Part shown: in pieces, positions 1-43,154 of the stretch
Position numbering within the stretch: position 1 is the first letter of the stretch
How the letters are laid out: the number at the start of each line of letters is the position of its first letter
Source of the DNA: Strigamia acuminata
Lineage: Eukaryota
Direction of reading: 5' to 3'
Assembly: GCA_949358305.1 (NCBI GenBank)
Contig: OX442314.1
Location: forward strand, 29,946,001 to 30,010,000
Length of the DNA: 64,000 bases
The notes under the pieces: model-generated
Told to the model about the DNA's origin: nothing
Seen by the model: only the letters and a program-made list of their open reading frames with translations
The model's database searches: none
Program-made: the position numbers and the translations under genes

Positions 1-2
1 CG

Positions 3-5775: not shown

Positions 5776-5791
5776 AGAAATAGCTGATGCT

Positions 5792-11008: not shown

Positions 11009-12502
11009 ATGGGTTCAAATAAGCATCATTCTAAACGAAGTCATCGTCGGCATCGACGAAGTTCCAGCTCCAGCTCGTCCACCTCAACGGAGGGAGAACA
11101 GCGTCGTTCCGCCGAACGGAATTTGATGAGGTTGCAACAAATTGCACCTGTGCCGACGTTCAACCTGACGCCGCTTCAATTGGCCGCGCTGAATTGGATT
11201 GGCTCGCACCCGGAATGCTTTCCGCTCGATATGCAAGCAAATGCGCCGTTGCCAACGGAAGTTCTTCCTGGGATAAGTGCCCAGCTGACCATTTCTGAGC
11301 CAGCTCCAATGGCCCAACTGGCCCCGCTCGCGCAAGTGGTACGCCCGCCGACTAACGTCATCAGTGTCCCGTTGGCTCCACACACGTCAGTGTTCCAACC
11401 ACCCGTAGCAAGTGTTCCGCCGACCGTCGCGAATACTTCCGCCGTCAGTGCCCCAGTTACCCCTGTAGCTGCGAATCCAAGATGGATTCCCGCCGGAGCA
11501 GAGTCGTCTGCCTCCTCGTCTGGATGGACGGAACCTCCGCCAGGAGCTTTTCGGCTGCCCGCGTCGACGGCCCGTCCCAACGCGCAGCGCATGGCTTATA
11601 AAGCCAAGAAGAAGGACGAGGCGGCCCAAAAGCGCCGTGAGCAGTGTGCGCGGGATATTGCGCAGGGAATTCCCCACGACAATATTGTCACCGACCAAGC
11701 GACGGAGACCATCTGTCCGTTTTGTGTAGGTTGTGGTTGGTGTTGCGGTGCTTCCGCCGGCTCTTCTCTTATGAGATGCCCCAACTGCCGAGGCACGAAG
11801 GTGCGACCGCGCTCAGAGCCCTGGCGCCAGGAGGTGGAACCCCACGTCGTGAAGGGAATGAAGACAAACGAGAAGAGATGTTGGGCTCACTGCCCAACCT
11901 GTCGCGTGTTTCTCAACGCTCGAGGAGAAGCCGTCTACATCGACCCCAGATTCCTCACGAAGGAACGAGCAGCTGCCAATGCGGGTTTAACGGTCGAAGC
12001 CTTTCGACATCCGCCTTCATCGACCGCATCAGAGATTTCGGAGGAAACGGTGCAAGAGGTTGAGAGCGTCGAGGAAGAAATGGTCACTCGTCCGAGAACC
12101 ATGTCTCGTGGACGAGGATGTCTTACACTGGACAGAGCTAAAGCAATTGCCCAGGAGCAGCGACAAAACATCGTCGCCCGTGGACGAGCCCGTCGGCTCC
12201 AGAAGATTGTGTCGGAGCAAGGTAAACAACCGGAGGTTCCTCCAGTGGCCAAGTCGGATATTTCCGACGAGTCAAAGTACGAGGATGCCGAGGAAAACCC
12301 GATTTCCATCGTTGACTTCGTGGCTGATCTTTTGGAAGATTTGCCGTTCCCTCCACCGAGTCCGGAGGAAGTGGAAAAACCCGAGGAAGCCGTATTTTCC
12401 GCCGTCTCCACCGAGGCAACTGAAGAATCTTCGGATTTCCTAACTTCGACCGAAATTGAGAAACCGGTTGAGAAGTCGACCGACGTCGAGAAGAAGGAGT
12501 AG
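11009..12502 (+). CDS. Extra Gypsy ORF of unknown function, 497 aa (basic/Ser N-terminus, Pro/Ala-rich region, Cys cluster, acidic tail)
   Basis: GC-rich ORF between AT-rich spacers, lying between pol and the 3' PPT/LTR; TTTATTTAG acceptor 1 nt before the ATG. Confidence 0.75.
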   Translation: MGSNKHHSKRSHRRHRRSSSSSSSTSTEGEQRRSAERNLMRLQQIAPVPTFNLTPLQLAALNWIGSHPECFPLDMQANAPLPTEVLPGISAQLTISEPAPMAQLAPLAQVVRPPTNVISVPLAPHTSVFQPPVASVPPTVANTSAVSAPVTPVAANPRWIPAGAESSASSSGWTEPPPGAFRLPASTARPNAQRMAYKAKKKDEAAQKRREQCARDIAQGIPHDNIVTDQATETICPFCVGCGWCCGASAGSSLMRCPNCRGTKVRPRSEPWRQEVEPHVVKGMKTNEKRCWAHCPTCRVFLNARGEAVYIDPRFLTKERAAANAGLTVEAFRHPPSSTASEISEETVQEVESVEEEMVTRPRTMSRGRGCLTLDRAKAIAQEQRQNIVARGRARRLQKIVSEQGKQPEVPPVAKSDISDESKYEDAEENPISIVDFVADLLEDLPFPPPSPEEVEKPEEAVFSAVSTEATEESSDFLTSTEIEKPVEKSTDVEKKE

Positions 12503-14765: not shown

Positions 14766-17700
14766 AGCCGACACATTGGCGTAAATATCGGCAGCATATT
14801 CACCAGCTTCCTATAAAAACAGCCGTTTATAACTAAATGTTATATTGTACTGTATTACACATTGTAATACAGTAATAGACATTGGGTTTGTATGAAAGGA
14901 ACCTTCTCGAGGGAAAAAAAAATAATAGAAGTTAATGTTTTGTCATTGTGTTATGATTCGTTCGGTCAATTTAAACGCAGAGATCTCCAAAAGGAGATGG
15001 AGAAGAGGCCAAAATAGGATAAAAGAAATTACAAAATTGGCCAAAAAATGTGAATTTTACAATGAAAATGCATTAATTGATAATTTTGCTTCTTACTTTG
15101 AGTATTTCATAATGGTAGTCAAAATTTGAAGAGGCATTCCATAATTTTATAGAATTGTTTGCGAACATAGATGATGGATGGAGAAAATATAAAAGCTTGA
15201 AATGATGAACATCATTGTGCAGGTGTTCAGCTAATGTTTCCTTAAGCTTTACTATTTTTTCAGATTCTCGGCAATGGACAATGAGTGGAAAATGTATGAT
15301 TTTGTCTCTAGCCAGAATAACTGTTTTGACGACTGGATAATCGAAATAAGTACAAATAGAAGAGGAAATTAGGCAAATTGATATGAAAATCAGAAATAGT
15401 AACATAATGTTCTTCAGCTTATTTGCATTTTGCATTTTTGGCTTCGTTTCTAGAATTGCTTGAATTTTGCCTTTTAACATGGAATTTGATTTAGTTGATT
15501 TTCTGCACATCAAAAGAGGCATTTTGTAGCAGTGAACAAATATTTCGACGAGTGTTAAACAAGATATTCCAAAATAGAGTCCGATGTTTCCGCCAATGTC
15601 GCATAGTAAAGAGATAATGTCGTAAGAAAATTGTTCTTTAAATGTAAGAACATAATTATTCACAACAGAAACATCAAAGATATTTTCAGAATAGGGTATT
15701 GTATCAAAGGATGTGCTGAGTTGTGTCACGTCACACAAATCAAGACATTTGCACTGTTTTATTGCATCTTTAGATTCCAAAAATTCCAATAACTTTGAAA
15801 ATTGATGTCGTACAACATCGTCCTTGCATTCTGGTAGGTTTCTTGCATCGTAAAACGGATATCTGGCAAATGTTTTATTGATGTGCTTTAGAATGAATAG
15901 AAAACTGATGCAGTGCAAACACTTGAGCCAGTTACATTAAATAACTGATACAGAGTGACCAAAAACAACAGGATTCTGGAAAGTATGGTCAATTGTTTTC
16001 CATCAACTTTTAATCATGATGTAAAACACCTTGAGATAAATATTGATCACAATGGTTTAACAAACTTAAAAACAAACACTGTCCATAAATATTGCTTAAT
16101 TTTAAAATGAATGTCTTCATTTGTGTTTTCATCCCGGTGGTACTCACAAATAAAAACATTATTTGATCAATATTAAAAATGTACCTGCAAGTTATATTTT
16201 TCGTGAGGCAAGGATACAAACAGTCGTATAAATTGTTATCGCAAGGATTTCTCTTTGTGTTGAGGAAGTGATACTGAAAGATAATTGGTTAAATTTCAAA
16301 TAGACAACCGGAATGTATTTTGTGCAATATTTAATTTCAAGAATCTTGAAATTGTGTGTATTTAGACAATTTGGCACACAAGAATGTACTAAGTTATATG
16401 GGTGTGGAAGGTATGTCTGTGAAGGGTCCCTTAATTCTAGGGAGCCCCTAAATTGCAGAAAATTAAAACAAATGACTTCATCACTCTGCAGGTACAAAAT
16501 TGTGACTGATTCACGGCCACTGACAGCACGGAACCCACAGGGCCAGTCCAACCCCACCCTACTACAAAAAAAAAAAAAAAAAAAAAAAAGGTGGAGTTGA
16601 TAAGGAATAATGACCACTATGACATCAAGTCCAGTCAAATTACTCCAATAACCAATGGAAAAGGCATCTCGGTCATATGGGGCAGGAGTGGGGGTATAAA
16701 GGGCTCAACTTCCTGTTTGGACTCCAGAGTTGAATACTAGTATGATCAACACATAGCAGTTCTCCGCTCATGTTCACCATGATGACACTCAGGGAATGTG
16801 CCGGTACGCCATTCCAAGTACTGTGCGAGATTTATCGGCCAAATGTATTGAGGATGTACCGTATCGCCAATCAACAACCGCAGACAAAATGGCACGTCGG
16901 AGCCACGAGCTATGCGACATCGCGCACCAAATGCACGACCTAATCAACAGAATGAACAGTAGATCGACCACACTGGCACATGGGGTTAACCCTATAACAA
17001 CGTGTGCTGCATGTGGTTGCTGGTAGGCTGCAGTAATGCAGCACTAGCAATAGGAGAGGCATAAGATACTGACCCCGAGATACTGAATAAAGGTCATAAA
17101 CCATTAAATAGAGTCTCTTGTGCTCATTTCTATTTACGTGTCATGCATCCGGCGTTATTTGGGCTTTCCGGTGCTGGTAGGGCATTCCGTTGTCCAAATC
17201 GCATCTTTCCACTCTCTCAAAAATGGTATTAAAATTAAAATTAAAATTAAAATTTTGTGCAAATTTCTGATAATGGCCAACGAAAAAATAAAATATAACC
17301 GTGTGGAACATGCCAAATTGGAGTACATCAATCCAGCACATACCGGTACACATTTGATATGGATCACAAATATATTCTGTTAGATTTTTTTTTTAATTGT
17401 GTATTTTTTTTATATTTATAAAATTTCTTAGTGTCTTACTTTTTCCAAATTAGTTTTAGCAATATGTCTAGTTGCTGTCAAATTCACTCTATCCTTATGA
17501 GTGGTTTCAATATCCAAGTATTTTGCTTTCAGTAGCAAACTCACCCCTTCTTCAAAAGCATGTGGATAATACTTGCCTTGTGGAAAAGCTATTTTCACCT
17601 GAAAAATTTAAGAACCAGTCTAACAGTTTGTACAGAACATAATACACAAATTTAATAACTTTAGCAACATTAAAAACTTACAATAACGTCCAAGCATTCT

Positions 17701-18406
17701 GCTGTGAATTTTAGTTTGATCACCATCTTGTAATCAGAATTTCCATAAGGGAGCAGTATTGCTAATCAACAATTATGGATTTTGAAATAATAAATGCATA
17801 ATAACTTTTTTCTTAACTTACGACTTGAAACTTGAGCAGTAGGCTGCATAATGTTATCATAATTTTGAATTGTCAGGTTAATGTGTGATTTTCCCTGAAA
17901 AGAATTGCTTAATTATTTGTAAAATAAAGATAATAGAAATGGATCTTTACCTTTTCAAAGTGTGCATCAGTTATGTAACTTGGTATACTGGTATATTTTA
18001 TAAAATCAAGGAAATTATGATGACTACTATTGAAGGAATTATCACAATTTTCGAGGTCGTCACTTCTGCCATTCACTTTTGCTTTATACTCGTTCAACTC
18101 TCGTGTTGTATATGGGAAAACATAAACACATGGGAAAATACCATGCATTGTTTTAATTAAGTGTGAATCAACTGTTGTTGGTTCATCCAAGAAATGCAAT
18201 ATTCTATCTGAAGTTTGGTAAACACACACTGCCAAATTGACAATAAGTAATAGGAATAACAAATAAGATGTCTTTTTTTTCTTTTTTGAAATGTTTTTTA
18301 GTGATTTGACAAATCCTGGGGTCTCTGCCATGACAGTGCGAACAATAAGTTGCACTTTTCTTCTTCTTAGTTGTTGAATTCGGCCAAATGGTTGAAACAC
18401 ATCCAT
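14766..18406 (-). pseudogene. Concatenated DEG/ENaC gene, copy C (divergent, partly degraded, interrupted by the Gypsy element)
   Basis: TM1 exon ending 17951 (VYQTSDRILHFLDEPTTV...FPCVYV), small exons 17894-17822 and 17761-17682, exon ~15862-15097 with CKCLDLC...LLCDIGGNIGLYFGISCLTLVE then a linker and a second TM1 (...YFDYPVV...FPLIVHC); middle exons could not be joined in frame. Confidence 0.75.
16418..17219 (+). mobile_element. Possible solo-LTR-like insertion in copy C
   Basis: Higher-GC block with TG...CA ends, TATAAAA ~16695, AATAAA ~17086; no TSD found. Confidence 0.35.
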
Positions 18407-20633: not shown

Positions 20634-23600
20634 TTATACAAATAGAATTGTCATTATGAAAAATTGGCAAATTATGATAGCTAACACAGAAACACCGAGA
20701 AGTAGACCAAAAATGTTGCCTACATCAGAAACTAAGGCAACAAATGAATATTTAAATTCTTCAAAAAAAAATTCTATTTTATTGGTAGTGAAAACAATGT
20801 TCACTATCGATGTATCCGGTAGCATAGGTGCAAAACTGAATTCGTTAATTTTGAAAATGGATTGTTCACAAGGTGAGGGACAAGCACAATCTTTCGTAAT
20901 GTCGGTGTTTGTGTGTATTTCATAGTATAATGTTCTAACTGCTTTGGCCGCTGCTGAAGAATTGCAGAAAGCGATGTCTTTCTTGATGGCAAATGGCATA
21001 CTGTTGGATAAACAAGAACATAAATGATCGAAACAAATTCCACTCATTTGCATAAATTTACCTGCACAACTGTTTACTTTTTATCTTCTTGTCCAAGCAC
21101 TGGTCTTTACAGTGGGAATAATCTATTGGATCTGAAGTACAAGGCTTAAATTTTGTGTTTAGATAATGTACCTAAAATTAATATTTTTTAAACCGGTTTA
21201 TAATCATATAAATATTAAAATGATTTATTGTACATACTTTCAATCTGCTAATCAAACTCGAAGTGCTGAACGAAGAAGGCAAAGCAGAGTTAAAATCGTC
21301 CGCGAAATTAGGAGTTTCACTTGCAGTGATATACACCTAAAGGTAACAAAATTATTGCATAGCAGAGGGTATGAGTTTGAATTCAATGCATTAATTTACC
21401 AAATATATTACATCTCATTTTGTATATTGTCATAAGAATAATTTTTTGTCAATTTTTAACATTTCTTATGTGTATTCTAGCTTAAAGGTCAAAAGACTTT
21501 GTAACTTTCTTTACATTGTGTTCAGCCGAAATACAGACTACTATGGATTATGTGTTTACTGTTTTAAAATAAACATCCAAAACAAATTTTAAGTTAAAAT
21601 AAGATTTAAGTTATATACTGTATTGTGATGGCAGGATCTTAACCAGAGCAGCTAGGAAACCAGTTACCCTTGTATGGGACGCGTGCTTACAGAAAATAAG
21701 AGACAAGGACTCCAGACTGTTGGGTTGTTGACATTTAATCCGTTGTCCAGGGGTCAGAATCTTAGTGTAACCTACGTGCTGGCAGTGCCACTTGGGCACG
21801 CCACACCAGCAACTGACCCGTCACACACACAGAGGTTATCCCATGAATGATGTGTTCGATATCTTAACTATTCCCTCGTACTTACCATGGCCCATGCAAC
21901 CAATCGTGGAGGCTGTGGTAGATTCATCAGCACTGAGCGTCACACGTGTTTATAAACTACAGACGCTACAGGAATCTTTGCGTGACTAATGCATCTGACG
22001 GAATTATTGACTCAAAACGGCAAGTTCCCTGCTCAGAATGCGCTAACCTCACCTCACCTCACCTTAACAGGGTCAAATAAAACAAAACAAAGCAAAACAA
22101 ATCAATCTAAAACCCTCACAGAGGAAAAGAGGATAAATTCAAAAATTCAACGCTGTTTTGGTCATACTGTGTAAATGACTTTTAATGATGAGTTTATTGT
22201 TGTTTATTTAATTTATTTTAGCATTATTAGGCCTAATAATAGCCTTAATACTGCTAAATAACAACTGGAATTGGACAATCGTCTGCGCAGAATGGGGCGC
22301 GCAGTACGAATTTAGCATCAAGATACCGTGCGCGAACTGTAGGTCAGACCACTCCGCAAAGGAGGGATGACCTTGGGGTCATTGGGCAGTGTGTGACAGT
22401 GAAGCAAATCACCCATGGGTGGGCAAGCGGTCACAATATAGCTTGTCTTTAGCAGAACAGTTGTGTGTTCTGACTGTACTACGTATAAGGATTAAAATAA
22501 AACGTAACGTGCACAATAACACAAAATAATGAAGTTAGTTTGAAACTTACTGATGTGAAATCAGGCTTGCATGGATTGTTTTCCACTTCGAAGATTATTT
22601 CAAGAAACATGGTGAATAATCGAAATTTTATTGGACCTAATGAGAAGAAGTTTATTCAACTATATTTTTTCTTTGTGGCTTAAAACTCATTAATCACCAA
22701 AGGAATGTTTGACACACGTTCCATGCGGACTTACAATGTTCGTATAATTTCGAACGTCAAATAGGTCTCCCGAAAATGGATTCTGAAAATTATGTTATGT
22801 TTTAATCTATCAATTTAATAAAATCGTTTTGACAAATTCACGATGGTGCTCCACATTGATTTTACTTACAAACATTTGGATAAGTTTCAAATCCGATGGT
22901 GCTGTATAAGTAAGATCCCACAGTTGATTTACAGTTAATCCTTTCCAGTTGACAAGGTCCAACATGTCAATATTGCATTTTGTATCATTCGGTTTGTGGT
23001 GGTTTAGATATTCTTCTTTTAATTCGATTAGAGCTGGGTTGTGTGGTCCAGCACAAATGATAATGTTCGGATACGTTACTGTTGGCAAATCTTCTATCAA
23101 TACGCTTCTTTGAATGGGTTTGTTCACAAATAATCGAATTCTTTGTTGAACCAAATACCCTCCGAATCCAAAAACACAAAGATAATGAACCCAAAAGAAT
23201 GGATTTTTAATTGACAGCAGAATTTGCATTCTTTTAGTCTTTTGGCTGGTTTTGAAACAGGTTTCAATTTTTCTTGTCATGTGATTTTTTGGGCCAAATG
23301 GCTTCTTTGTATACCATTTTGCAATGACCCAAACGAATTTGATCAAGAAAAGTGAAGAAAATCCTAACCAAAGACCCAAATTTCCACCAAAGTCAGAAAA
23401 AAGACTGATAAGATCGTAGATCAAGCGTTCTTTCAAAATGGTAACATGATCGTCGAGCAAATACCAAGAGATCGATGATCTGCCACTGCCATCGTGTTCC
23501 AATTCGAATTTGGGTAAAATCAGAGAGTCTTCACAACTTCTTGTGCATCTGCAGTCGGACACGGGTGTAGGTGTCATAGCATCGTGCATGTTTTCTTTGT

Positions 23601-25907
23601 ACATACGTAGCGTATTTTCGGAATTGCTGCAAAGCTGAATGTGGCTTCTATTTGGATAATTTGGCCTGTAGGGTAACCTGTCGAGAAATGTGTTAAGAGA
23701 GTAAAGATTTTGTTTTTATAAACAATTTGCCAAACTCACCAACATGGATTTTTGTCCAAAATCTTATTCACGCATTTATTGCCACATTCTATGTATTCCT
23801 TCATCAGAATGCAAGGTTGTTTTTTTGTGTTTTTGAATACATGCTTAAACAAATCACGATTCGGTTAGAATATTTCCTCACGCCTGAGCCAAGCTATCAT
23901 AACAGTAAGTTGAAATCACATATTTTCTCTTTTTTTTGGATCATTTGATTCAAGACTTCCGACAGTACTTTCGAATATTCTACTTTATAGTGTTACAATG
24001 TTCTCTGACATGTGATTGTGAATTTATTGTCAGGCCTTTTTTGAACTAACAAAATCGAATGATGGGTTTGCTCACAAAGCAAAACTCATTGTTTTTTATT
24101 CATCATTGTTACCTTTCTTGGGTAAAATCCGATTTTTGCAGACATTCCCGAAGTTAAGGCAAATCCTGCTTGGAAATCCAATGGCCATGCAGTTAATACC
24201 TAAAATTAGATTTTGCAACTGTAGATTTGTAAGTGGAATTAAACCAATTGATGTCATCGTATGGTTCGAGAAAATTTATTGTCCGCATAAAATAGTTTTA
24301 TTTAGACTGAGGCTTACGGCTTACAAAAATGTATACAGTAAAATATAGGATCCTGTATTGTAGGACTGGAAACATCACGGCGGAGGATCGAATCGTTGCC
24401 ATCCGAATCAGCGGATTGGGATCCAGCATTAATCTCTCTCAGCAACAAGATCCAAAACTTTTGCAGGAGGGATCTCCGAAAACGGATGGCCAAAAAAAGC
24501 TGGCTGAAAAGGAGCGAAGGATGCAGACTCGAGCGGGAGACTGAACTGTGAGCACCTGGACTCAATTGTAAGTTTGGGCTTAGTACTTTGTTGACATATG
24601 GTCTAATGTAATTGGGTTATTATTACAAGTATATGGTATTACTTTATTTCATTTTCATTTAGCTGGCTTTCACAGGGCACCTTGCGCTCTTTAGTCTATA
24701 TTTTCTCATGTTCTTTCCGGCTGTCACCAGACGGCGCCATATATCATTCTGTTATCAATCGCTAAGATGGCGAACACAAGCATTAGCGATGCCACATTGT
24801 TTTCCCAGGTCTGTAAGTTTATTTTGTGCAATTAAATTTTTTTGTTTCCATATTTACAGTTAGTATTCAATGCTATGCATGCCTGTCAATATCGTGTACT
24901 TCGCTATTGGCAGTGTTGTATCTCATTCATTAAATTGTGAACGCGTTCAAGTTCGTGTTTATGACTATGTGAAAGTGTTCACGTTTGCTTCACTAAATTT
25001 TTTTCTGAATTAAACTAAGTTCAAGTTTATGAACTTGAATTCAAAGTTTTAACAAAGGACTTTCCAATCCCCAGGGATGATGGTTATACGTTTTATATAG
25101 ACAAAGTTTAAAATATTTTACCAGCGTTAGAGATTTTCCTCGTATCAATTCCGGTATTTTTAAGTAGTAACCCTTTGTAGCACATATTTCAGGCCCACGC
25201 AGAGTTCTGTTGTCTAAAAATTAAAAAAAAAACTATAAATTGCTCGAATCAATAAGAGATCGATTTTATAAATTCACCTTCAACTTTGCTACAAGTACCT
25301 CTTGGATGCAGTACTTGCGTAATAGTTGCATTTTCTAGGACATGTGTCTAACAAAATCAGACACACATTAGAATCAAAATTGAATTTGAACTTTAATAAA
25401 CATCTAGTGCGTAGTTTGTTACAAACTTACTTTTCGCTGACGCCTACTGTCGAAGGAGAAGTAGTCCTCAACGATATTAAAACTGTAGTTCAAATTCCAC
25501 AACTTGGTAAGATCAACATCTGGTCTTGTTACGAGTGCATCCAATGGGTTCAGAGAAGCCATGTCAGTCGCTTCTAAGTCGGACGAGTTATAGTAATCCA
25601 ACACGTACTGATTTAGTGGTATGCAAACATGAGTGGGTCGAAACTGATACTTTTCGATCTTCTCTTCAAAAACATCGACTGCAGTTGGACTATCCAAGTA
25701 ATAAGAAATGCGATCGTACATTTGATAGCAGTATATGAGAATGCAGACACCAAGAAGAACAGCCCAAAAGAACCGAAATGCAAGTGTTTTGTTCTTATCA
25801 ATCATTGGTTGAAACTCTCGAGGAATTGTTGTTTCGATGTTTTGCCTTTCGAGTAAATGTCTCACTTGATGGCGGATTGTTCTGCGGGATCGTCGTTTCA
25901 TTTCCAT
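20634..25907 (-). CDS. Concatenated two-subunit DEG/ENaC (pickpocket-like) channel, copy A; 11 exons, 794 aa
   Basis: Exons 25907-25431, 25347-25278, 25213-25122, 24199-24113, 23843-23740, 23677-22870, 22782-22698, 22636-22551, 21336-21238, 21171-21062, 21000-20634; all introns GT-AG; total 2385 nt in frame; two sets of TM1, xPxGTC, thumb cysteines and TM2 (SDFGGNLGLWLGFS; SDVGNIFGLLLGVS). Confidence 0.88.
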
Positions 25908-29516: not shown

Positions 29517-30807
29517 TGTGCATTAGGTTCATACAAATAGAATTGTTATTATGACAAACTGGCAAATTATTTAAGGAATAACAAAATTGCCGACTTGTGC
29601 AAAAAATCTACGATAGCTAACACAGAAACACCGAGAAGTAGACTAAAAATGTTGCCTACATCAGAAACTAAGGCAACAAATGAATATTTAAATTCTTCAA
29701 AAAAAATTCTATTTTATTGGTAGTGAAAACAAAGTTCACTATAGATGTATCCGGTAGCATAGGTGCAAAACTGAATTCGTTAATTTTAAAAATGTATTGT
29801 TCACAAGGTGAGCGGCAAGCACAATCTTTCTCAATGTCGGTGTTTGTGTGTATTTCATAGTATAATGTTCTAACTGCTTTGGCCGTTGCTGAAGAATTGC
29901 AGAAAGGGGTGTTTTTCTTGATGGCAAATGGCATACTGTTGAATAAACAAGAACGTAAATGATCGAAACAAATTCCACTTATTTGTATGAATTCACCTGC
30001 ACGACTGTTTGCTTTTTATCTTCTTATCCAAGCACTGGTTTTTACATTGGTAATAATCTATTGGATCTGAAGTGCAAGGCTTGTATCTGGTGTTTAGATA
30101 AAGAGCCTGAAATTAATATTTTTAAATCAGTTGATAACCATATAAATATTAAAATGATATATTGTTGTTCATACTTTCAATCTGGTAATCAAACTCGACG
30201 TGGTGAACGAAGAAGGCAAAGCGGAGTTGAAATCGTCCGCAAAAGTAGGAGTTTCACTTGCGATGATGTACACCTAGAAGTAACAAAATTATAGCATACC
30301 AGAGGGAATAAGTTTGAGTTCCATCCATTAATTTACCAAATAAATTACATATCATTTTGTATATTGTCATCAGAATAATTTTTTTGCCAATTTTTAACAT
30401 TCTTTAGTTATGTGTATTCTAGCTGAAAGGTCAAAAAACTTTGTCACCTACTTTACATTATATTCAGCCGAAATACAGACTACTATGGATTATGTGTTTA
30501 CTGTTTTAAAATAAACATCCAAAACAAATTTCAAGTTAAAATAAGATTTAAGCTGTATATTGTGATGGCAAGATCTTAACCAGGGCAGTTAGGGCACCAG
30601 TTAGGCTGGTGTGGAACGCATGCATACATAAAATAAGAGATAAGGACTCCAGACTGTTAAATTAGGTTGTTGGCATTTAATTTGTTGTCTAGGGGTCGGA
30701 ATCTCAGTCTAGCCTACCGGTATATGCTGGCAGTGCCGCTTGGGCACGACACACCAGCAACTGACCCGTCATACAAAGAGAGGTTATCCTCATGAATGAT
30801 GTGTTTG

Positions 30808-31017
30808 CAGGGGCGGATCTAGCTTTTCGGGGGCCCGGGGCTTGAGGTTTTTCCGGGGCCCCTTTATCGAAATTTTTAATAGCGACCTTTCTTCTTTTTT
30901 CTTTTTTTTAGCGACTTTTTTTTTTTTTTTTAGTACATTGCCTTGCGTGTTGGGGCCTCCTAGAATTTGGGGGCCCTGGGCTCAAGCCCCATTAGCCCTA
31001 TGCTAGATCCGCCCCTG
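30808..31017. mobile_element. hAT-type MITE
   Basis: 16-bp perfect TIR CAGGGGCGGATCTAGC, 8-bp TSD TGTGTTTG/CGTGTTTG; absent at the paralogous site ~21850. Confidence 0.85.
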
Positions 31018-32796
31018 CGTGTTTGGTATGCTTAACTATTCCCCATAGTTACCCACTTGGGGTGGGGCGATTGAGCAGTGTGTGACGGGGGTCACGCTTG
31101 AGTGATCAAGTCGTAACGATTTTACAGCTTATCTATAGCAGAACAGTTGTGTGTTTTGGCTGTACTACGTATAAGGATTGAAATAAAACATAACGTGCAC
31201 AATAACACAAAATAATGAAGTTAGTTTGAAACTTACTGATGTGAAATCAGGCTTGCATGGATTGTTTACCACTTCGAAGATTATTTCAAGAAACATGGTA
31301 AATAATCGAAATTTTATTGGATCTAATGAGAAGAAGTTTATTCAAAAAAAATTTTCCTTTGTGGCTTAAAAATCATTAATTACCAAAGAAATGTTTGACA
31401 CACGTTCCATGCGGATTTACAATGTTCGTATAATTTCGAACGTCAAATAGTTCTCCGGAAAATGGATTCTGAAAAGTATGTTATGTTTTAATCTATCAAT
31501 TTAATAAAATCGTTTTGACAAATTCACGCATGGTGCTTCACATTGATTTTACTTACAACCATTTGGATAAGTTCCAAATCCGATGGTGCTGTGTAAGTAA
31601 GATTCCACAGTTGATTTACAGTTAAACCTTTCCAGTTGACAAGGTCCAACATGTCGACATTGCATTCTGTGTCATTCAGGTGTTGGTGATTAAGATATTC
31701 TTCTTTTAATTCGATTAGAGCTGGGTTGTGTGGTCCAGCACAAATGATAATGTTCGGATACATTACTGTTGGCGGATCTTCTATCGATACGCTTCTTTGA
31801 ATGGGTTTGTTCAAGAATAATCGAATTTTTTGTTGAACCAAATACCCTCCAATTCCAAAAAGACAAAGATAATGAACCCAAAGAAATGGATTTTTAATTG
31901 ACAGCAGAATTTTCATTCTTTTAGTCTTTTGGCAGGTTTTGAAACAGGTTTCAATTTTTCTTGTAATGTGATTTTTCGGGCCAAAGGGCTTCATTGTATA
32001 CCATTTTGCAATGACCCAAACAAATTCGATCAAGGAAAGTGAAGAAAATCCTAACCAAAAACCCAAATTTCCACCAAAGTCGGAAAAAAGACTGATTAGA
32101 TCGTAGATCAAGCGTTCTTTCAAAATGATGACATGATCATCGAGCAAGTAGGTATAGATCGATTGTCTGCCACTGCCATCATGTTCCAATTCGAATTTGG
32201 GTAAAATCAGAGTGTCTTCACAACTTCTTGTGCATCCGCAGTCGGACACGGGTGTAGGTGACATTGCATCGCGAATGTTTTCTTTGTACATACGTAGCGT
32301 ATTTTCGGAATTGTTGCAAAGCTGAATGTGGCGTCTATTTGGATATCTTGGCCTGTAGGGTAACCTGTCGAGAAAGTGTTAAGAGAGTAAAGATTTTGTT
32401 TTCATAAACAATTTACCCAACTCACCAACATGGATTTTTGTCCAAAATCTTATTCACGCATTTATTGCCACATTCTACGTATTCCTTCATCAGAACGGAC
32501 GGTTGTTTTTTTATGTTTATGAATTCATGCTGAAATAAATCACGATTCGGTTAGAACATTTCCTCAAGCCTGAGCCAAGCTAACAGTAAGATGCATTCAC
32601 ACGTTTTCTTTTTTTTGGAACATTTGTTCCAAGACTTCCAACAGTACAGTACTTTCAAATATTCTACTTTACAGTAGATCAGTAGAACAACTTGCGCAAT
32701 ATTGTTTGCATGTAGTGGTGACCACAAGTAGAGTGTTGACACAACAAGATCATGGTGTTGACACCTTTTGAGTCACCACAGATAAGGTCATTTTCC

Positions 32797-33062
32797 CGGG
32801 GTTTCTTCATTTTGTCGCCCTTCATTTCGTCGCCGTGTCATTTCGTCGCCGTTTTTGGCGACGAAATGACACCCAAAACGGAAAAAGGGCGACGAAATGA
32901 ATGGCGACGAAATGATACGGTTGAATCACCAAAACAACCCAAACCGAACAGAAGGGCGACGAAATGACACGGCGACGAAATGAAGGGCGACGAAATGATA
33001 CGGCTAAGTAACCGAAACAACCCAAACCGAACACGAAGTGATGGGATTAAAAAACGAAATGA
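32797..33062. repeat. Cluster of direct and inverted ATTTCGTCGCC/GGCGACGAAAT motifs (MITE subterminal-like)
   Basis: Repeated 11-mer in both orientations. Confidence 0.6.
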
Positions 33063-34200
33063 TGGCAAACTTATGGCAATATTATGGCAAAATTGTTGCC
33101 AAATTCTGGCAAACTTGTGACCAAATTATGGCCAAATTCTGGCAAAATTATCGCTAAATTCTGGCCAAATTCTGGCCAACTTGTGGCTAAATTGTAGCCA
33201 AATTATGGATAAATTGTGGCAAAATTCTGGCCAACTTGTGGCTAAATTGTAGCCAAATTATGGATAAATTGTGGCAAAATTTTGGCCAACTTGTGGCTAA
33301 ATTGTAGCCAAATTATGGATAAATTGTGGCAAAATTATGGCCAACTTGTGGCTAAATTGTGGCCAAATTATGGCAAAATTGTTGCCAAATTATGGCCAAA
33401 TTATGACCAACTTGTGGCTAAATTGTAGCCAAATTATGGATAAATTGTGGCAAAATTCTGGCCAACTTGTGGCTAAATTGTGGGTTTTGTGGCCAAATTA
33501 TGGCAAAATTGTTGCCAAATTCTGGCCAAATTCTGGCCAACTTGTTGCTAAATTGTAGCCAAATTATGGATAAATTGTGGCAAAATTCTGGCCAACTTGT
33601 GGCTAAATTGTGGCCAAATTATGGCAAAATTGTTGCCAAATTCTGGCAAACTTGTGACCAAATTATGGCCAAATTCTGGCAAAATTATCGCAAAATTCTG
33701 GTCAAATTCTGGCCAACTTGTGGCTAAATTGTAGCCAAATTATGGATAAATTGTAGCAAAATTATGGCCAACTTGTGGCTAAATTGTGGCCAAATTATGG
33801 CAAAATTGTTGCCAAATTATGGCCAAATTATGACCAACTTGTGGCTAAATTGTAGCCAAATTATGGATAAATTGTGGCAAAATTCTGGCCAACTTGTGGC
33901 TAAATTGTGGGTTTTGTGGCCAAATTATGGCAAAATTGTTGCCAAATTCTGGCCAAATTCTGGCCAACTTGTTGCTAAATTGTAGCCAAATTATGGATAA
34001 ATTGTGGCAAAATTCTGGCCAACTTGTGGCTAAATTGTGGCAAAATTATGGCAAAATTGTTGCCAAATTCTGGCAAACTTGTGACCAAATTATGGCCAAA
34101 TTCTGGCAAAATTATCGCTAAATTCTGGCCAAATTCAGGTTAAATTCTGACAAACTTGTGGCGAAATACTGGCGAAATTGTGGCCAACTTGTGGCGAAAA
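33063..34200. repeat. ~11-bp satellite (GGCCAAATTnT variants) with a 427-bp higher-order duplication
   Basis: Identical translated blocks start at 33337 and 33764. Confidence 0.93.
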
Positions 34201-34439
34201 TCTGAATATCAACTCAGATTTTTAAAATATTTAATAATTCCCAAGACCGTGGCTACAAATTGTTCAAAACTGTATACAAAAAAAATCGATTTTTGCAAAT
34301 TAAAAGTCCAACCATAATTCCAATCAAAAAGTTATTGACCCCATCGTTTTCAGCGGGATTTTCCACACTGGAAACTTTATTTAAACATTCCAATCGGTTC
34401 TTTTTTCAAATTTTAGGTTTTTCATGATCGAATCCAAAT

Positions 34440-34960
34440 TTTGCACTAAATTCCTCATTCGGTCGCCGCTAAGATCGCCCGAATCGGTACTTTTTCTCAA
34501 CCGATTCGAATTTTAAAAAATACAGACTTGTGCAGATTTTGATTATCTTTCGAATGAGCTTGGTTTCAGAATTATCTGACCTCATTTTGATACAGAAAAC
34601 ATAAAAAAAAACATCGAGACGAACATTTTCAAATTTCTCCATTCGATCAATCGCCCGAATCGCTACTTTATTTCACCCGAATCAAAAAATAAAAAATGCA
34701 AGCGCGTGCAGAATTGTCTGCTCTTTAAAATGAGCTTGGTTTCAGAATTTTCCGAACTCATCTTGATGTAGAAACAATTGAAAAACATATTGCGACGAAC
34801 ATTTTCAACCGAACTTCCATTCGGTCACCCGCTAAGATCGCTCCTTAACGCTACTTTTTATTCATCGAAAAATTTTAAAAAGGACACAGACTGGTGCAGT
34901 TTTTCATTCTCTTTCGAATGAGCTTGGTTTGGTAATTTACAAATCTCATTATAAACCGCC
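34440..34960. repeat. Three diverged ~185-bp tandem units containing CTTTCGAATGAGCTTGGTTT
   Basis: Motif recurs at ~34548, ~34723 and ~34911. Confidence 0.7.
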
Positions 34961-35383
34961 ACCAGGTGGCGCCACCGTTCCTCGAAAATTACAAAAGTTA
35001 CACACTTCCTGCATCGTACTTGTTGTTAATTTATGAGAGGCTGTACTCGTATCTGAGCAAGCGTCGAGATAGCCAACATCAATCCGATCGCGGTAATAGT
35101 CATTTTCCGACTATCTACCGCCATTGGGTGCCAGATTATCAATCAAAGAATTTCCGTCCTCAAAACCCCCTAGACCATGCCGCATATATTTTTTTCTACA
35201 TCATCACTACCGATCATCCGCCCGTTACCGATTGCCAGACATTGCTAGCGATCATCACACATCATCATCATGTGTTTTTGGATTTTTTTCTTTTTCTTCT
35301 AACAACTCCCACGAACCTTAACTGATCTTTTTAATGTGATAGGAATTGGGCACTTATTGACTCGTGATATGTCTGGGGAAAAT

Positions 35384-36001
35384 TGTGACAATCTGTGGTG
35401 ACCACGAGGTCACAAAAGTGTTTTAATTAGTTATGACTTAATAAATAGTGATTTTAGTATTCATAATAAAATGATTGTCAGATTACTGCGGGAAAACTAG
35501 CTATACTAGTTTTACCGTTTCTGCGGGATTGACGTAACAACGTCATGAATTTGCATAATTCTCCAAATTTATGCGAATACGTCATTTCCGGTCCAACAAG
35601 TATTTAAACCCGTGTCTGACCGGAAACCCCCACTATATAGATACCAGAGCAACATTAGCATCACCACCTCACCGTCAGGCCGTTTTACCGGATTGATAGA
35701 GGATCGATGCCCGTTGCCAATTACATCTATAAACAGAAGTCACAGATATTATCGTAGCAATACTACGATTGTAATATCTCCCGAAGCGAAGCGTTTGCGA
35801 ACACGTGTTTCGCCAGACGCCATTACCCTAGACAACAGAAGCCACGTGTAAGACTGCCGTGCAGCAACAAATCGTATCCGCCGACAAGGATCCGAGACCA
35901 CAACATTGTTAAGTATTATTGTAATATTACAGTGTTTCAATAAAAAGGTTATTTGTAAGATATTTGTGTAAAGTTTATTTACCGGAACTAAGGTTACGAC
36001 A
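35384..36001 (+). mobile_element. Possible solo LTR
   Basis: TGTGACA...CGACA ends, TATTTAAA ~35601, AATAAA ~35939; no clean TSD. Confidence 0.35.
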
Positions 36002-37634
36002 AATCGCTACCGATGTCTGGCGATCGGTAATGGGCCGATAATCAGTAGTGATGATGCAGAAAAAAAAATGCACAAAGGCCAAGCATATACGAAGCATTCC
36101 ACCGCTTCCGACGAGCGACCCCAAGATGAGACCAACAACTAACTTGTAAGTCAAGGCCATCCATCCATGACCACGCAAATCCAATGACGCATTCTTGGAT
36201 TCCATCAATTGTAATTTTATTTTATTCTAGCCTTTTTTAGTAAACACTATACAGTTTATCTTTACATATAGTGTAATAAGTCATTTGTGTACACAGATCT
36301 TCAAGTAATCAAACCACAGTGTTACTACTTGACCGGTAATTTTACATCGCTGGATGTATTCTTAATGTGTCCTTTCAGGGTTTTGTGATGTGTAAATGTG
36401 CATTTGTTGAGGAGTCAAGAAATGGCTGCCATTGAGTTGGGTGAGGAACAACTAGGAACAACTAGAGTCTTTGATTACTCTCTAAGAACAAGGGGGGTCA
36501 AGTCACCCTGGGGGGTGACTGTGTCACAAACAGATGTGGAGGAATGAAAATGAGTGGAGTGGAAACACTCCAATTCTCTAACATGTGATAGTGAATTTAT
36601 TGTCAGGCCTTTTTTGAACTAACAAAATCTAATGATGGGTTTGCTCACAAAACACAACTCATTGTTTTTTATTCATTATTGTTACCTGTTTTTGGTAAAA
36701 TCCGATTTTTGCAGACATTCCCGAAGTTAAGGCAAATCCTACTTGGAAATCCAATGGCCATGTAGCTAGTACCTGAAATTAGATTTTGCAAGTGTATATT
36801 TATACAAGTAAATGGAATTAAACCAATTGATGTCATTGTATGGTTTGACAGAATTTATTATCCGCACAAAATAGTTTTATACAGGGTGGTGCAGAAAGTC
36901 TGGTTCACAGTAAATAATTTCCAAACCGTTTTAGATGATGATTTAGCAAAATGATTGTAAGGGTAGTATGTCGGGGGAAATCCAATTATGACATCCAACT
37001 TGACCTCAGAGGTCAACTTCAAGGTTATCCATATTGTAACTCGAGAACCGTGACAGATAGAGAGAAAAAGTGAATCAGAAAGTTGTAGAGGACCATCTAA
37101 TTAGTTTAGAACTGTTCTTAAAAAAATTATTTCTTCCCCAAAAGTTTTGAGAAAAAAAGGTTTGAAATGGTAGTCTACTCAGCTTAGTAACCTAAAACTA
37201 TTGAGGCAATCAAGCTAATCCTCAATTAGAACACTTTATTGGGTGATACTTGTAACTGGAAGAGAGGAAAGGAAACACAAAAGAAAGGAAATAATTTATT
37301 TTGGAAATACATTCCAACATGATTGTTTTAGGTTACAAAGCTGAGTAGAGCGGGAGACCGTGAGCTGTGAGCACCAGGACTGAATTGTAAGTTTGGGCTC
37401 ACAAGGAGACCGCAGGAGTGTGTAATACACAATTGTTAAAATTATTGTTAAATAAAGGATTCACATGACCTGAGCAATGTTTCTTTCAAATATTTAAATG
37501 CAACGCTCTCTCACATTGTTACAAACAGTTACAACACAAAGGATTCTTTACTGTGTGTTGAAACACTATTTTTTGAATTTTTGAGTAAAAAGATCAAGTG
37601 TAGCACTATACTTGGTGATTAGCCTGTTCAAACT

Positions 37635-37945
37635 TGTGACGGTTATAAAACCGTATTGATTAATGTTCACACTAGATGGCGCTGTTCATTTAACGCGCGC
37701 AGTTTAAACTTGATAAAATCAAAGATTCGTGATAATTAATTGTTACAATGACGTGAATAAAATATAAGTTATTTTATTTGGCATAATAAAGTGTTAGCTA
37801 CTTGAGATATTGATTCTACCGAATCAATATCACGTTTTACTTACCTTTCGAAGAGAACCAATCGGACTCTTCTGGACCCAGTTCACTACTAGGTTGGGAT
37901 TAAAGCGACCTGCGAATCCATGGATTTGGGCATCTGATTGGCTAT
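37635..37945 (+). mobile_element. Partial diverged copy of the U3 end of the 13216-14765 LTR
   Basis: TGTGACGGTTATAAAACCGTATT...CACTAGATGGCGCTG...AACGCGCGCAGTTTAAACT colinear with 13216-13525. Confidence 0.9.
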
Positions 37946-39420
37946 CATCCAGAGAGTCTTGCGTAATTGCAAGGGTGTTAAGAACTATGCCGATAATGTG
38001 ACGGAGGTGGGTTCATCAGTTATGGATCATCACAACAATTTGGACAAAGTGTTAGTGACATTGAAGGAAAATGGATTGACACTGAACCGGAAGAAGTGTA
38101 AATTTGGAATGGAAAAATTGGCATTTCTGGGTAATTTGGTCACATCAAAAGGAGTGGCATTAGGTGAAGAGAAAATTCGAAAAATGAAAGAATTGCGAGA
38201 TCCGGAAGATGTGCATGAATTGAGAGGAGTTTTGGGTTTGGCAAATGCGTGTGAAAAATTTTTGCCACATTTAGCCAACATGGTCGAGCCGATGAGACGG
38301 TTGACACGCAAAAATGCAGTCTGGAATTGGGATCAAGAGCAAAAGAAAGCATTCCAGCGACTTAAACAGGCTGTGGCTGAGGCGACAATGCTGAATTATT
38401 TCAAGAAGGATTTGGAAACCTTTCTAGTCGTGGATGCAGGACCAAATGGCCTTGGAGCAGTGTTGACGCAGCGAAAAAAGGAAGGAGGACTTGCGATTAT
38501 TGCGTTTGCCAGCAAAGCGTTGAGTGAGACGGAAAGAAGATACTCACAGACAGAAAAGAAAGCTTTGGCAGTTATTTGGGGTTGTGAGAAGTTTCACATG
38601 TATTTGTTTGGGAGACAATTTACGGTGGTTACAGATCATAAACCGTTAGAAGTCATTTATTCGGCAACCCCAAGAGCTTCAGCGAGAATTGAGCAATGGT
38701 TATTGCGACTGCAACAATATAAGTTTGCCATTAAATATGAGAGCGGACTGACAAATATCGCGGATCCTCTGTCTAGGCTTTTAAAGACTGAAGGAAAACC
38801 TGAAAGATCTATTGAGAAATTGACTGAACATTATGTCAATTTTATGGTGCAACATGCAATTCCAAAAGCGGTGACGATTGAAGAAATTATCCAAGCAACT
38901 GGAAATGATGCTGAGCTACAACAAGTAATAACAGCAATTCAAACAGGAAGTTGGAACAATGCGCAAAAAGATTTCAAGCAGATAAAAATGGAACTGACCA
39001 GCGTTGGTGGTGTGGTTTTGCGAGAGAACCGTATCGTGATTCCATTAGAACTACGTAAGAAGATTTTGGCTATTGTGCATGAAAGTCATCAAGGGATAGT
39101 GCGAACCAAAGCATTGCTGAGAGGAAAGGTTTGGTGGCCAGGTATGGACACACAATTAGAGGACATGATTCGAGCATGCATCCCATGTCAAGCACAAGCG
39201 CAACCAGATCGTGTTCAACCAATGAGGATGACGGACTGGGCTACGAAACCATAGAAACACTTGGCGGTTGATATTTGTGGACCATTTCCAGATGGAAGCA
39301 GCGTTGTAGTGTTGGTAGATTATTACACCAAATGGCCAGAAGCAAAAGTGATGACATACAGCACGTAAAATTGTTGATTGGTTTGAAGATGTGTCTCACC
39401 CTTCAGCCAACGGTCTTGCA
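37946..39420 (+). mobile_element. Degenerate Gypsy pol fragment (RT C-terminus, RNase H, integrase N-terminus) from a different family
   Basis: YADN (mutated YxDD), VDAGPNGLGAVL, TDHKPL, IADPLSR, HESHQG...WWPG...CIPC; stop at 39254. Confidence 0.9.
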
Positions 39421-40213
39421 GCCATATCGCCATCCATTTGGCGCTGTTTACTGCCCGCTTTAGAGGTGAATTTATCAAGATCCAACTGTCAGGTGTGGTA
39501 TCCCAAGGAAACCATGGAAATCATAGATAGAGAATGTTTTTTGAAGAGAGAGAAAAAGCAAAAAGAGTGTAAACAAAAATAATAAACTTCCAAATTGCAA
39601 AGACTTGTTCAAAACTGTGGTTTGAGCACAGTCTCTCCACAAGCTGAGACAACTCAGAACTTTAAAGAAGATGAATAAAATTCAGAAAATCAAAGTTACA
39701 GGCTGGATTCCCAGTCTTTTTTCAAAGCTGGTAGCCACCTGAACGCACAGATATCGTTCCTACGACCTAACGAACTCTTTGTACCAGTTGAGCACTTCAC
39801 CATCAGTATCCCCGTACCTCCGGCAGCTTGCCCTGCTGTCCGAGTCCCAATCTTTCACAGTTCTTGGGTTGTATCCAACTTGCAACTGTTTCCGACCAGT
39901 ACACGGGACAGGGTAGGGATTGAAACGGTGTGAACCCTGGAAAACACAGAACAGCAGCAGGGCAACTCACTGCAGATGAATTGCCTCAGCAACTTTTAAG
40001 TCAGTCGGTCTCGCGTGTGCCCACACTTCGCTACCTACCCGGATCAAATTTTTTGAAGCTACGTCCTATTGTACGTCCTATTGTACGTCCTATTGTACGG
40101 AAGTAAAGAAGACGAGAACCGGGAACAAGAAAGCGTGTGCGGAAGTCGAGAAGACGAGACCCAAGAACGTAAAAATTCGCGAATGGCACGAGAAGCTTGG
40201 ACACAAATCAATT

Positions 40214-40801
40214 TTGAAGAAACTGAAAAACGACGTTGCAGAACAAATAAGTCGAACATTAATGGAAATGGCGCGATGTATGATTTTGCAGTCGAGTGAG
40301 GAATCGAGTGTGGAACTAGACGAAAACGAGAACGAAGTCGAAATTTCCGAGAACGAGAACAAAGTCGAAATTTCCGAGAACGAGAACGAGAACGAAGTCG
40401 AAATCGAGATCAATGACGAAGTCGAGAACGAGACGGAACAAGGGGAAGTTGAAACTCCCCAGATCAAAAACATACGACTGCCTCCGCGACAATCTTCGAG
40501 AACTCGGAAACTGTATTCAAATCAAAATGGAAAGCCACCAGGAAGAATTCGATATGAGGAGTATTAATTAGTAAAATGTATTATTTGGATTGTAGGGAAA
40601 CAAACACTCAGGGGAAGTGTTGTGATTGAGTGTGTTGTTGTCCCACCAGGTGAACATTCTCACCTGACGTATTGGCACCGACCAATCAGTGTCGTGTGCA
40701 CCATTTACCCCTGTACTATTGTTTGCAACTTTGAATAAAATATTCACCATATTGATTTACCCAACCACGCGTCTCCATGTTGTAATTCCCAACCTTTGAC
40801 A
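40214..40801 (+). mobile_element. Internally deleted Ty1/copia-like remnant with 3' LTR (40618-40801)
   Basis: VAEQISRTLMEMARCMILQS matches the copia integrase ERxNRTLxExARxM motif; PPT GGGGAAG, then TGT...ACA with AATAAA. Confidence 0.65.
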
Positions 40802-43154
40802 CTAAAAACTACACTACTTTTACAACTAAAAAAAATATTTGAGACTGTATTTTTATTATTATACCAATGCCTTCTTGGCTTTAGATGCTTCTGGTCCAAA
40901 GGCACATTTATGGCTTCATTTGGGTCAAAATGAGGAAATTTTCACCAATTGCAATGCCTATTGTATGTTTGTATATAGTACACTGTATACATTAAAGAGA
41001 GTAGGACTAGAATAACCTCCATCTTCTCATTTCAGTCGAGACTTGACTTGATCTTGCTACGTTCATAAGGTATGTGCGGGAAAATTAAGCTCCCACAATG
41101 CAAAGCACCCCTCTCGACCAATTGAAGCATCGATGTGTCCTCTTGGAAAATTTAACAAGAACTTTCCAGTCCGCAGGGATGATGGTTATATGTTTAATAT
41201 AGACAAAGTTTAAAATAATTTACCAGCGTTAGAGATTTTCCTAGTACCAATTCCGGTATTTTTAAGTAGTAACCCATTGTAGCACCTATTTCATGCCCAC
41301 GCAGAATTGTTTTGTCTACGGAAAAAAAAATTACAAATTGCTCGAATCAATAAGAAATCGAGTTTATTAATTCACCTCCAATTTTGCTACAAGTACCCCT
41401 TGGATGCAGTTCTTGCGTAATAGTTACATTTTCTAGGACAAGTGTCTAACAATATCAGACACACATTAGGATCAAAATTAAATTTGAACTTTAATAAACA
41501 TATATAGTGCATAGTTTCTTATAAACTTACTCTTTGCTGACGCTTACTGTCGAAGGAGAAGTAGTCCTCAATGATATTGAAACTGTAGTTCAAATTCCAC
41601 AACTTGGTAAGATCAACGTCAGGTCTTGTTATGAGTGCATCCAATGGGTTTAGAGAAGCCACGTCTGTCACTTCTAATTCGGACGATTTGTAGTAATCCA
41701 ACACATACTGATTTAGTGGTACACAAACATGACTGGGTGCATGGTAGCCCTCTTCCATCTTTTCTTCAAAGACATCGACCGTAGTTGGACTATCCAAGTA
41801 TTAAGAAATGCGATCGTACATTTGATAGCAGTAGATGAGAATGCAGACACCAAGAAGAAGAGCCCAAAAGAACCGAAATGCAAGTGTTTTGTTCTTATCG
41901 ATCATTGGTTGAAACTCTCCAGGAATTTTCGTTTTGATGTTTTGCCTCTCGAGTAAATGTCTCACTTGATGGCGAATTGTTCTGCGGGATCGTCGTTTAC
42001 TTTCCATTTTACTGTTGCTGAACAAGTAACGGCAAAACTGAATGTATAATTTGACGTATATTTAAATGTTGTCGAGCATATTGAATGGCTCCCGAGAATT
42101 TATAATTTATACGGGAAAAACAACGGCTGCAACACCAGGTCTGAATAAAAAACAAACACTCAGAAACGTATAATTACAGGCATATTCACAGTTCCGAAAT
42201 TATTAATATTTTATTTTTTATACCGTAGTTTCATTTCTATCTCGTTTGTACACTAAGGAAAATTAAAAATTGAAATGAAAAGTATATGTTTTCCGTTTTC
42301 AGATAGTAGAGCTAGCCTTCAAACCACACTTGTGTTGAGTAATAATGATCGTATCCTACAAAGGTAAAAAGAATATCTTTAAAAAAAAATAATAGAAGTT
42401 TAATCGGCGATTAATCTTCCAATGGTTCATCTAACACCAAATTAATATACTTTTATGACTATTACAATCGCGATAACATTGTTGAAATTGGTGGCCAACT
42501 CAGGGAACTCCTCTTATTTTTGTACTTTTAAGTCCATTATTGATCTGTTGTGATCACTTTGCTGCGGCACACTAGAACGACTGGACGAGTCATTTTGACT
42601 GTTTAAAACAGCTTGTGACCGCTTGGCCACCCACGGTGACCAGTGTCACTCCACGTGGAGTGGCAAAGGGCGACAGCCTTAAGACCACTGAACAGTGTGG
42701 TTAAACTTCGTTAAAAACTAATTGTGTTTCCCCAATTGGAATTGATTCTCCTTACATAAAAGAAGGATCTGTATGTCCACCAATAAGATCTGATCAGTGG
42801 GGTTTGATTACATGTGTAACAATCACACTGTTTTGACTGTACTAAATGATTAATTTCACCAATAGATGGCGCTGATGTTATTTAGCGGGAAATATTACTT
42901 ATAAACGTTTGTGATTCATACATAAAGTAAATAAAATCATGTTTTATGGCTGTTTCGAGTCAAATCTGGTTTTTAACATATTTATTCATACAAATATTTA
43001 GTTACAAATAGTTTATGATAATATTCTTAGAATTTATCATAAAACTAGGTTATGGATTAGAACCACCCTTCGCATCTGCACCAAGTTCACACTACACCTG
43101 GATTAAGTGAAAAGACTTAAATAAAAATTTTAAAAAAATTGTTGTATTTTATTA

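Follow-up and report, generated by a model that had tools for sequence, protein, structure and literature searches.

Our analysis of a 64,000-nucleotide stretch of the Strigamia acuminata genome (contig OX442314.1, positions 29,946,001 to 30,010,000; here referred to as the window) revealed three minus-strand genes, A, B and C, in which the end of one DEG/ENaC subunit is joined to the start of another. A preliminary description had placed a TM2-linker-TM1 fusion with a Lys-rich linker of about 40 residues in one open reading frame of gene C. All the peptides quoted there indeed lie in a single minus-strand stop-to-stop frame at positions 15073-15936, and the linker comprises 39 residues, of which 10 are basic (9 Lys and 1 Arg) and 1 is acidic. 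The first 25 and last 7 codons of this frame are intronic and fall outside exon 6 of gene C; the junction coding exon itself extends from 15862 to 15097 on the minus strand (766 nt), between the acceptor tttgccag and the donor GTAAGA. Six exons with AG/GT boundaries splice to 541 stop-free codons, which encode unit 1 in full, then the linker and unit 2 through its first quarter, as follows.

17951..18406, minus strand: gene C exon 1, with the start codon, the N-tail and TM1 of unit 1
17822..17894, minus strand: gene C exon 2, AG/GT boundaries, frame maintained
17682..17761, minus strand: gene C exon 3, AG/GT boundaries, frame maintained
17440..17598, minus strand: gene C exon 4, which may contain another 51-nt in-frame intron, judging by its length against the database proteins P0020 and P0004
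16287..17425, no strand assigned: 1.1-kb segment within intron 4 of gene C, in place of which another copy or allele has about 33 letters (joint 16286-17426; public runs X1, X2 and X3)
16185..16273, minus strand: gene C exon 5, in which the Cys-rich thumb begins, with 61% identity to P0020 over 33 aa
15097..15862, minus strand: gene C exon 6 (junction), running from the thumb end and TM2 of unit 1 through the linker to TM1 and beta1/finger of unit 2; AG/GT boundaries, Pfam ASC
15526..15609, minus strand: TM2 of gene C unit 1, with D0', G3', G6' and G10'-I-S12'
15409..15525, minus strand: Lys-rich linker of gene C, 39 residues, predicted to be cytoplasmic from the N-in/C-in topology of DEG/ENaC subunits
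15334..15408, minus strand: TM1 of gene C unit 2, with a Y-F-x-x-P motif at its end
15291-15271, minus strand: peptide FPLIVHC of gene C
15147-15130, minus strand: peptide KLWNAS of gene C

The evidence for the fusion is the TM2-then-TM1 homology in the correct order, within one frame and repeated in paralogues. Openness alone is weak evidence, because 35 open codons are reached by 14% of random frames in 14-32 kb. Pfam ASC (PF00858) matched the junction ORF of C in two stretches with 39.6 bits and the junction ORFs of B and A with 41.3 and 42.6 bits, respectively, each above the gathering cut-off of 23.6. The segment downstream of the linker, which had been taken for DEG/ENaC TM1/beta1, aligned as such: a second-unit profile built from C-family relatives and B matched the post-linker part of C over positions 6-113 with an E value of 4e-26. 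The small nucleotide similarity of C to A and B that had been remarked upon amounts to nil (best match between the junction exons of 26 nt, E value of 0.15), and the protein identity is 21-23%. A word-based search of longer proteins with the C exon gave 1 uninformative match among 1024 candidates, a single-unit scallop protein. We regard it as virtually certain that a fusion of two DEG/ENaC subunits exists in the DNA.

The C model covers the single-unit profile nearly end to end in unit 1, as do both units of B, and only up to position 145 of 420 in unit 2. A profile search of 2619 six-frame pieces found no later unit-2 exon of C below position 15076 in the window (best E value of 0.7), and C is therefore either truncated or continues past the window edge; positions 1-12.5 kb contain retroelement sequence (Pfam gag, pol). 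In three runs, the summed contig depth at the C junction was 9-25 times that of the neighbouring bin, a figure that is not a copy number and that hints at many near-copies. The contigs of three public runs from two studies contain 85-91% of the words of the window, and none of the 6 public runs listed for it is an RNA run.

Genes A and B carry the corresponding junction exons:

20634..25907, minus strand: gene B, 10 modelled exons, 765 open codons, two units, with a stop after TM2 of unit 2
22870..23677, minus strand: junction exon of gene B in the spliced model
29529..42007, minus strand: gene A, interrupted by a stop (codon 69) and, in its last exon, by a frameshift
31557..32364, minus strand: junction exon of gene A, reading frame still open

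The gene B model reads TM1-ectodomain-TM2-linker-TM1-ectodomain-TM2 with AG/GT at all boundaries, and it is 36% identical over 807 columns to P0003, a Strigamia maritima protein. The phase pattern predicts one short unit-1 exon between 25122 and 23843 that could not be placed, and gene B may for that reason be damaged. Gene A, recently duplicated from B (85-91% DNA identity), is likely a pseudogene; an 8.7-kb stretch of repeats and retroelements separates its modelled exons 3 and 4. The similarity of A and B stops just after exon 3 of unit 1 and resumes at one common point (B 25050-23990; A 41150-32680), with different inserts between the break points (1.1 kb in B, 8.5 kb in A) and one expected exon absent there. 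Hence no local copy is surely intact: A is broken, the B model lacks one exon, and unit 2 of C ends in the window. Intron phases 0-1-0-0-2 recur in unit 1 of C and unit 2 of B, which indicates that both units descend from one gene structure. We also considered a longer chain, in which the last exon of B would splice on into C, and rejected it on the basis of the models, in which a stop follows TM2 at the end of B and gene C begins with an ATG and N-tail of its own.

The remaining contents of the window are listed below.

1-4100, plus strand: retroelement fragment recognized by eye, which we take to be Bel/Pao-like
4653-9907 and 10994-12502, plus strand: LTR-retrotransposon gag and intact 1391-aa pol (protease, RT, RNase H, integrase), then a 502-aa ORF
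43155-44267, minus strand: intronless 370-aa protein kinase ORF (Pfam Pkinase), presumably SRPK-like and possibly a retrocopy
52126-53901, plus strand: PDZ-PTB exon (Pfam), which we assume to be RGS12/loco-like
60710-61681, minus strand: intronless CHORD-CS ORF (Pfam)

A repeat search found no LTR pair for the element at 4653-12502, and the 502-aa ORF after pol had no Pfam match. Short tandem-repeat arrays of about 11-21 nt at 32950-34200, 50890-51920 and 58400-58980 give rise to long spurious ORFs.

The suggestion that the fused architecture constitutes a family was borne out by database proteins. A profile of the three junction exons, run against 1.84 billion representative proteins at E values up to 0.001, matched 1094 proteins; the best 150 of these and two others, all of them gene predictions, were parsed into units. 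With a junction defined as a unit end followed by a unit start within 80 aa, the TM2-linker-TM1 arrangement was present in 44 of these 152 proteins, besides genes B and C of the window. Among the carriers is P0003 (T1ITL7, 805 aa), a gene model, and in another S. maritima model, P0152 (514 aa), the first half of unit 1 is followed by unit 2. An ESM Atlas search returned generic ASC clusters only. The fused two-unit architecture sits unlabelled in public gene models and is apparently undescribed.

Phylogenies of the separated units bore on the age of the fusion, which had been proposed to predate the divergence of A and C. In a tree of 29 units, all 10 first units fell on one side of a branch (bootstrap/SH-aLRT 94/88) and all 10 second units formed a clade (98/98); a quick tree of 47 rows likewise placed 15 of 15 first units together at 97 and 17 of 17 second units at 88. 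An AU test rejected a grouping of the B family's two units as sisters (p = 0.00014). The fusion is accordingly old and precedes the split of B and C, since the trees separate first from second units, and one old fusion of two already different subunits appears to be the best reading. A tree from 140 middle columns outside the search profile was mostly unresolved (3 label changes versus 7.0 in shuffled data), and in it no dimer's two units paired together. These trees lose support without the profile-covered columns, and several of their branches are long. Left out of both the 29-unit and the 47-row trees were P0152, P0012, P0057 and P0039, which are likely mis-joined or hold unit 2 only; P0152 had drawn three first units into the second-unit clade in an earlier tree. 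P0020 was omitted from the 47-row tree, and its unit 2 was included in the 29-unit tree. The dimer subfamilies share about 21-25% identity, and the junction persisted through this radiation.

Across 22 measured junctions, the linker comprises 32-60 residues with 7-15 Lys/Arg in each. In five C-family relatives, it is open rather than broken, differs in length by a few residues and is 33-44% identical to that of C, compared with 40-64% for TM1 and 41-52% for the following ectodomain; the junction exon as a whole is 45-53% identical, and the C-family linkers share a K-I-x-x-x-L core. The dN/dS of the junction exon, determined between A and B, was 0.54 (dN 0.066, dS 0.123; Fisher p 0.034; A is now broken). 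For the linker by itself, 2 synonymous and 4 non-synonymous changes (p 0.6) are too few for a test in so short a segment. The proposal that selection has kept the linker open therefore finds indirect support, in that the linker of the five relatives is conserved like its flanks, and none from the linker-only comparison of A and B. As the longest linkers keep a sequence resembling the tail that precedes TM1, the linker likely derives from the old N-terminus of unit 2.

The two units differ at the pore. TM2 of unit 1 carries the motif D0', G3', G6', G/S10'-x-S12' in both C and B. Gly at position 3' was found in 27 of 27 first units, a count biased by the presence of first-unit TM2 in the search profile, and in 78 of the 86 single-unit rows with a recognizable motif (95 examined). 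By contrast, only 1 of 10 second units has Gly at 3', most having Ser or Asn instead (Asn in unit 2 of B), and 4 of 10 have Ser at 6'. Second units keep D/N0', G10' and the thumb cysteines, the latter invariant across 9 dimers, which suggests that unit 2 still lines a pore. In ASIC1 the pore is lined by G3', G6' and G10'; in alpha-ENaC, positions 3' (S580) and 6' are both Ser (PMC8536179). Of 22 linkers, 21 lack the His-Gly motif expected ahead of TM1 of unit 2, and the single HG, in P0003, sits just after TM2. Its absence is not decisive for membership, because PDPNaC1, an accepted member, also lacks the canonical HG motif (PMC12714832). For P0003, an AlphaFold model was of low confidence (pLDDT 53.9, pTM 0.47) and uninformative on unit packing, and a complex prediction of its unit 1 with its unit 2, made without an alignment, scored 0.16. 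The top Foldseek matches listed for the P0003 model were all DEG/ENaC chains (best E value of 5.6e-16). Because each predicted polypeptide holds two units and four TM segments instead of one two-TM subunit, we class it as a new architecture made from DEG/ENaC units rather than among the canonical subunits.

Tandem-repeat channels such as K2P, two-pore and Nav/Cav channels arose by duplication and fusion of subunits, which fixes the order of the repeats and allows pore asymmetry. Their fold is unrelated to that of DEG/ENaC channels and their two or four repeats divide a four-fold pore evenly, whereas two DEG/ENaC units do not divide a three-fold one. Among solved structures, BRTNaC1 of Scolopendra subspinipes mutilans (8YMR/8YMW) was the best PDB profile match (E value of 8.5e-45) and the second by fold. 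It has a compact ectodomain similar in length to the units described here and, by way of P0045, whose C-terminal letters match the PDB chain, is 28% identical to C over 140 aa. PDPNaC1 of Scolopendra (9JF7) was the top Foldseek match of P0003 (TM by target, 0.63) and the top sequence match for the last exon of B. Both are channels of centipede antennae gated by heat and protons (PMC9974506, PMC12714832), and G378 at position 6' tunes the selectivity of PDPNaC1 (PMC12714832). However, BRTNaC1 is a single two-TM subunit of 431 aa, three chains of which make up each structure, and PDPNaC1 is an unfused 421-aa homotrimer (PMC12714832); the row matching BRTNaC1, the one of the two that is represented in the trees, groups with single-unit rows in the 29-unit tree and is sister to neither unit clade. 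In the vertebrate alpha-beta-gamma ENaC heterotrimer the pore is asymmetric, with Ser at 3' and 6' in one of its subunits (PMC8536179), much as is often seen in unit 2, but this channel is made of three separate genes and chains whose stoichiometry comes from assembly and not from a covalent link, and its sequence similarity to the dimer units is remote (E value of about 1e-6). Further counterparts are engineered ASIC concatemers, in which TM2 is joined to the next subunit via a short cytoplasmic linker and which are functional (PMC4529235, PMC10329638). These laboratory constructs keep the full N- and C-tails, while the natural join is old and its tails are trimmed to about 32-60 residues. 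An engineered ASIC1a dimer expressed alone produced currents in oocytes, and the concatemers also gave shorter by-products (PMC4529235), so that such currents do not prove how a dimer assembles.

We propose a model of origin and assembly. Two adjacent tandem genes would have fused once, losing the stop and the intergenic DNA, with part of the N-tail of unit 2 surviving as the linker, and the dimer gene would then have multiplied into many divergent paralogues. The fused gene is probably made as a four-TM protein. Its product would be a covalent heterodimer taking two neighbouring places in a trimeric sensory cation channel. As both ends of a DEG/ENaC subunit lie inside the cell, linking TM2 to TM1 through the cytoplasm raises no topological difficulty. 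The single chain would fix a 1:1 ratio and the order of the units. The pore-narrowing Ser/Asn at 3' would thus occur once per pore, as in alpha-ENaC, a subunit present once per channel, and by this analogy we read unit 2 as an alpha-like, once-per-pore subunit. DEG/ENaC channels are described as trimers of two-TM subunits (PMC10148893) and normally function as three-membered rings, so that a fused pair would likely depend on a third subunit supplied separately. This could come from a monomer gene or from the dimer gene by in-phase exon skipping; in B, skips from exon 1 to 6 or from exon 4 to 10 keep the frame and leave one collinear unit. The channel may serve the antennae or the cuticle in sensing acid, heat or chemicals, a sensory role being suggested by the nearest solved relatives, BRTNaC1 and PDPNaC1.

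We give about an even chance to an assembly in which the covalent heterodimer fills two of the three pore positions and a separate monomer completes the ring (2+1). A dimer that assembles with itself, three chains contributing six units, would form either two linked pores or a unit-1 homotrimer with unit 2 tethered as an accessory ring, non-conducting or ligand-catching. The canonical G3'/G6'/G10' of unit 1, the loss of G3' in 9 of 10 second units, the conducting ASIC1a dimer (PMC4529235) and the lack of a partner gene adjoining the A/B/C array in the window all speak for such self-assembly. We nevertheless consider it rather unlikely, given that the residues retained by unit 2 (D/N0', G10' and the thumb cysteines) suggest a pore-lining position and that a linker of 32-60 residues would fit neighbours in one ring. 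Alternatively, the fusion might serve co-expression, the basic linker being cut after synthesis to release two ordinary subunits that form mixed trimers. The richness of all 22 linkers in Lys/Arg and the lower-order products of engineered concatemers (PMC4529235, PMC10329638) would be in line with cleavage, but the linkers display no common cleavage motif or 2A-type NPGP, their conserved core resembles a helix more than a cleavage site, and a cytosolic linker, as predicted, would be beyond furin's reach; we therefore think this improbable.

The persistence of the junction exon bears on a further alternative, that exon skipping yields one chimeric unit as the working product, or that such genes survive locally as decaying pseudogenes. 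Exon phases do allow in-frame skips to one unit, P0152 looks like such a chimera, and the state of the local copies (A broken, B uncertain, C cut off) would fit decay. Yet every skip that yields one unit drops the junction exon, and this exon is conserved, both between A and B (dN/dS 0.54, p 0.034) and in the five C-family relatives, where it is 45-53% identical with an open linker, and it has lasted through a radiation to about 21-25% identity between subfamilies. Hence this alternative, too, has little probability, slightly below that of cleavage. That two adjacent single-unit genes were joined in error by assembly or annotation is very improbable, even though some multi-unit models do look mis-joined (duplicated pieces in P0011 and P0013, sister units in P0053 and P0082): the join lies inside one stop-free exon at three divergent or duplicated loci of the window, and contigs of public runs match it without a single difference, X1 over the linker, TM1, donor and flank of C (14800-15520) and X3, which may be the window's own source, across the B junction (23045-23524).

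Parsing of the 152 predicted proteins also gave three units in 16 of them, at least two of which, P0011 and P0013, consist of duplicated fragments instead. A clade of 30 rows (support 99) held most of the three-unit proteins, with their repeats grouped by position. Four proteins, P0046, P0048, P0063 and P0105 (1244-1289 aa), contain three full DEG/ENaC units with such position-wise grouping and are candidate single-chain trimeric channels; P0048 (1289 aa) comes from the shrimp Halocaridina rubra, where it is listed as a hypothetical protein. Eight related proteins (P0067, P0072, P0117, P0120, P0123, P0138, P0149 and P0150; 725-1053 aa) have a middle unit with about 200 residues between its TMs, as if one of three ectodomains had been discarded and the pore helices retained. 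A separate lineage, P0008, P0009, P0015 and P0028, has two to at least three closely similar tandem units and likely reflects an independent, younger fusion, or else annotation joins. In P0053, P0082, P0110, P0133 and P0145, two or three units group together or nearby within their own protein; they represent either additional independent fusions or tandem genes whose models were wrongly joined. The three-unit proteins, one of them from a shrimp, suggest repeated fusion. Tentatively, arthropods may have made multi-repeat DEG/ENaC chains several times over, in parallel to K2P and Nav/Cav channels: an expanded set of centipede 'tuning' dimers would dock on a shared or self-spliced monomer, and in shrimp-like crustaceans a single chain of 1250 residues would supply all three subunits of the pore, its repeats being specialised by position and the middle ectodomain reduced in some cases.

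No natural DEG/ENaC concatemer surfaced in the accessible parts of the literature searched; supplementary gene lists and subscription journals could mention one. The available portions of PMC8438182, PMC5203786, PMC9822975, PMC12714832, PMC10148893 and PMC3583452 contained nothing relevant on fusion, tandem arrangement or concatenation, and the S. maritima genome paper (PMC4244043) and a shrimp paper (PMC13372173) do not mention the family in the main text that was available. Crustacean ENaCs are mentioned in PMC7067487, in its accessible text without their architecture. A natural tandem precedent among pentameric channels was also considered and dropped, as term searches of the available text of PMC4795631 did not find it. 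Fused genes may have been missed because annotation pipelines easily split or mis-join them.

A natural, old and expanded dimer breaks the rule of one chain, one subunit in DEG/ENaC channels and poses a counting problem, as two units leave a three-fold pore one short. Concatemers serve in the laboratory as a means of controlling the make-up of DEG/ENaC channels, and these genes represent a natural counterpart, with which one could examine how selectivity and gating depend on the order of the subunits and on one asymmetric residue in the pore. The finding points to a large overlooked family of sensory receptors in centipedes.
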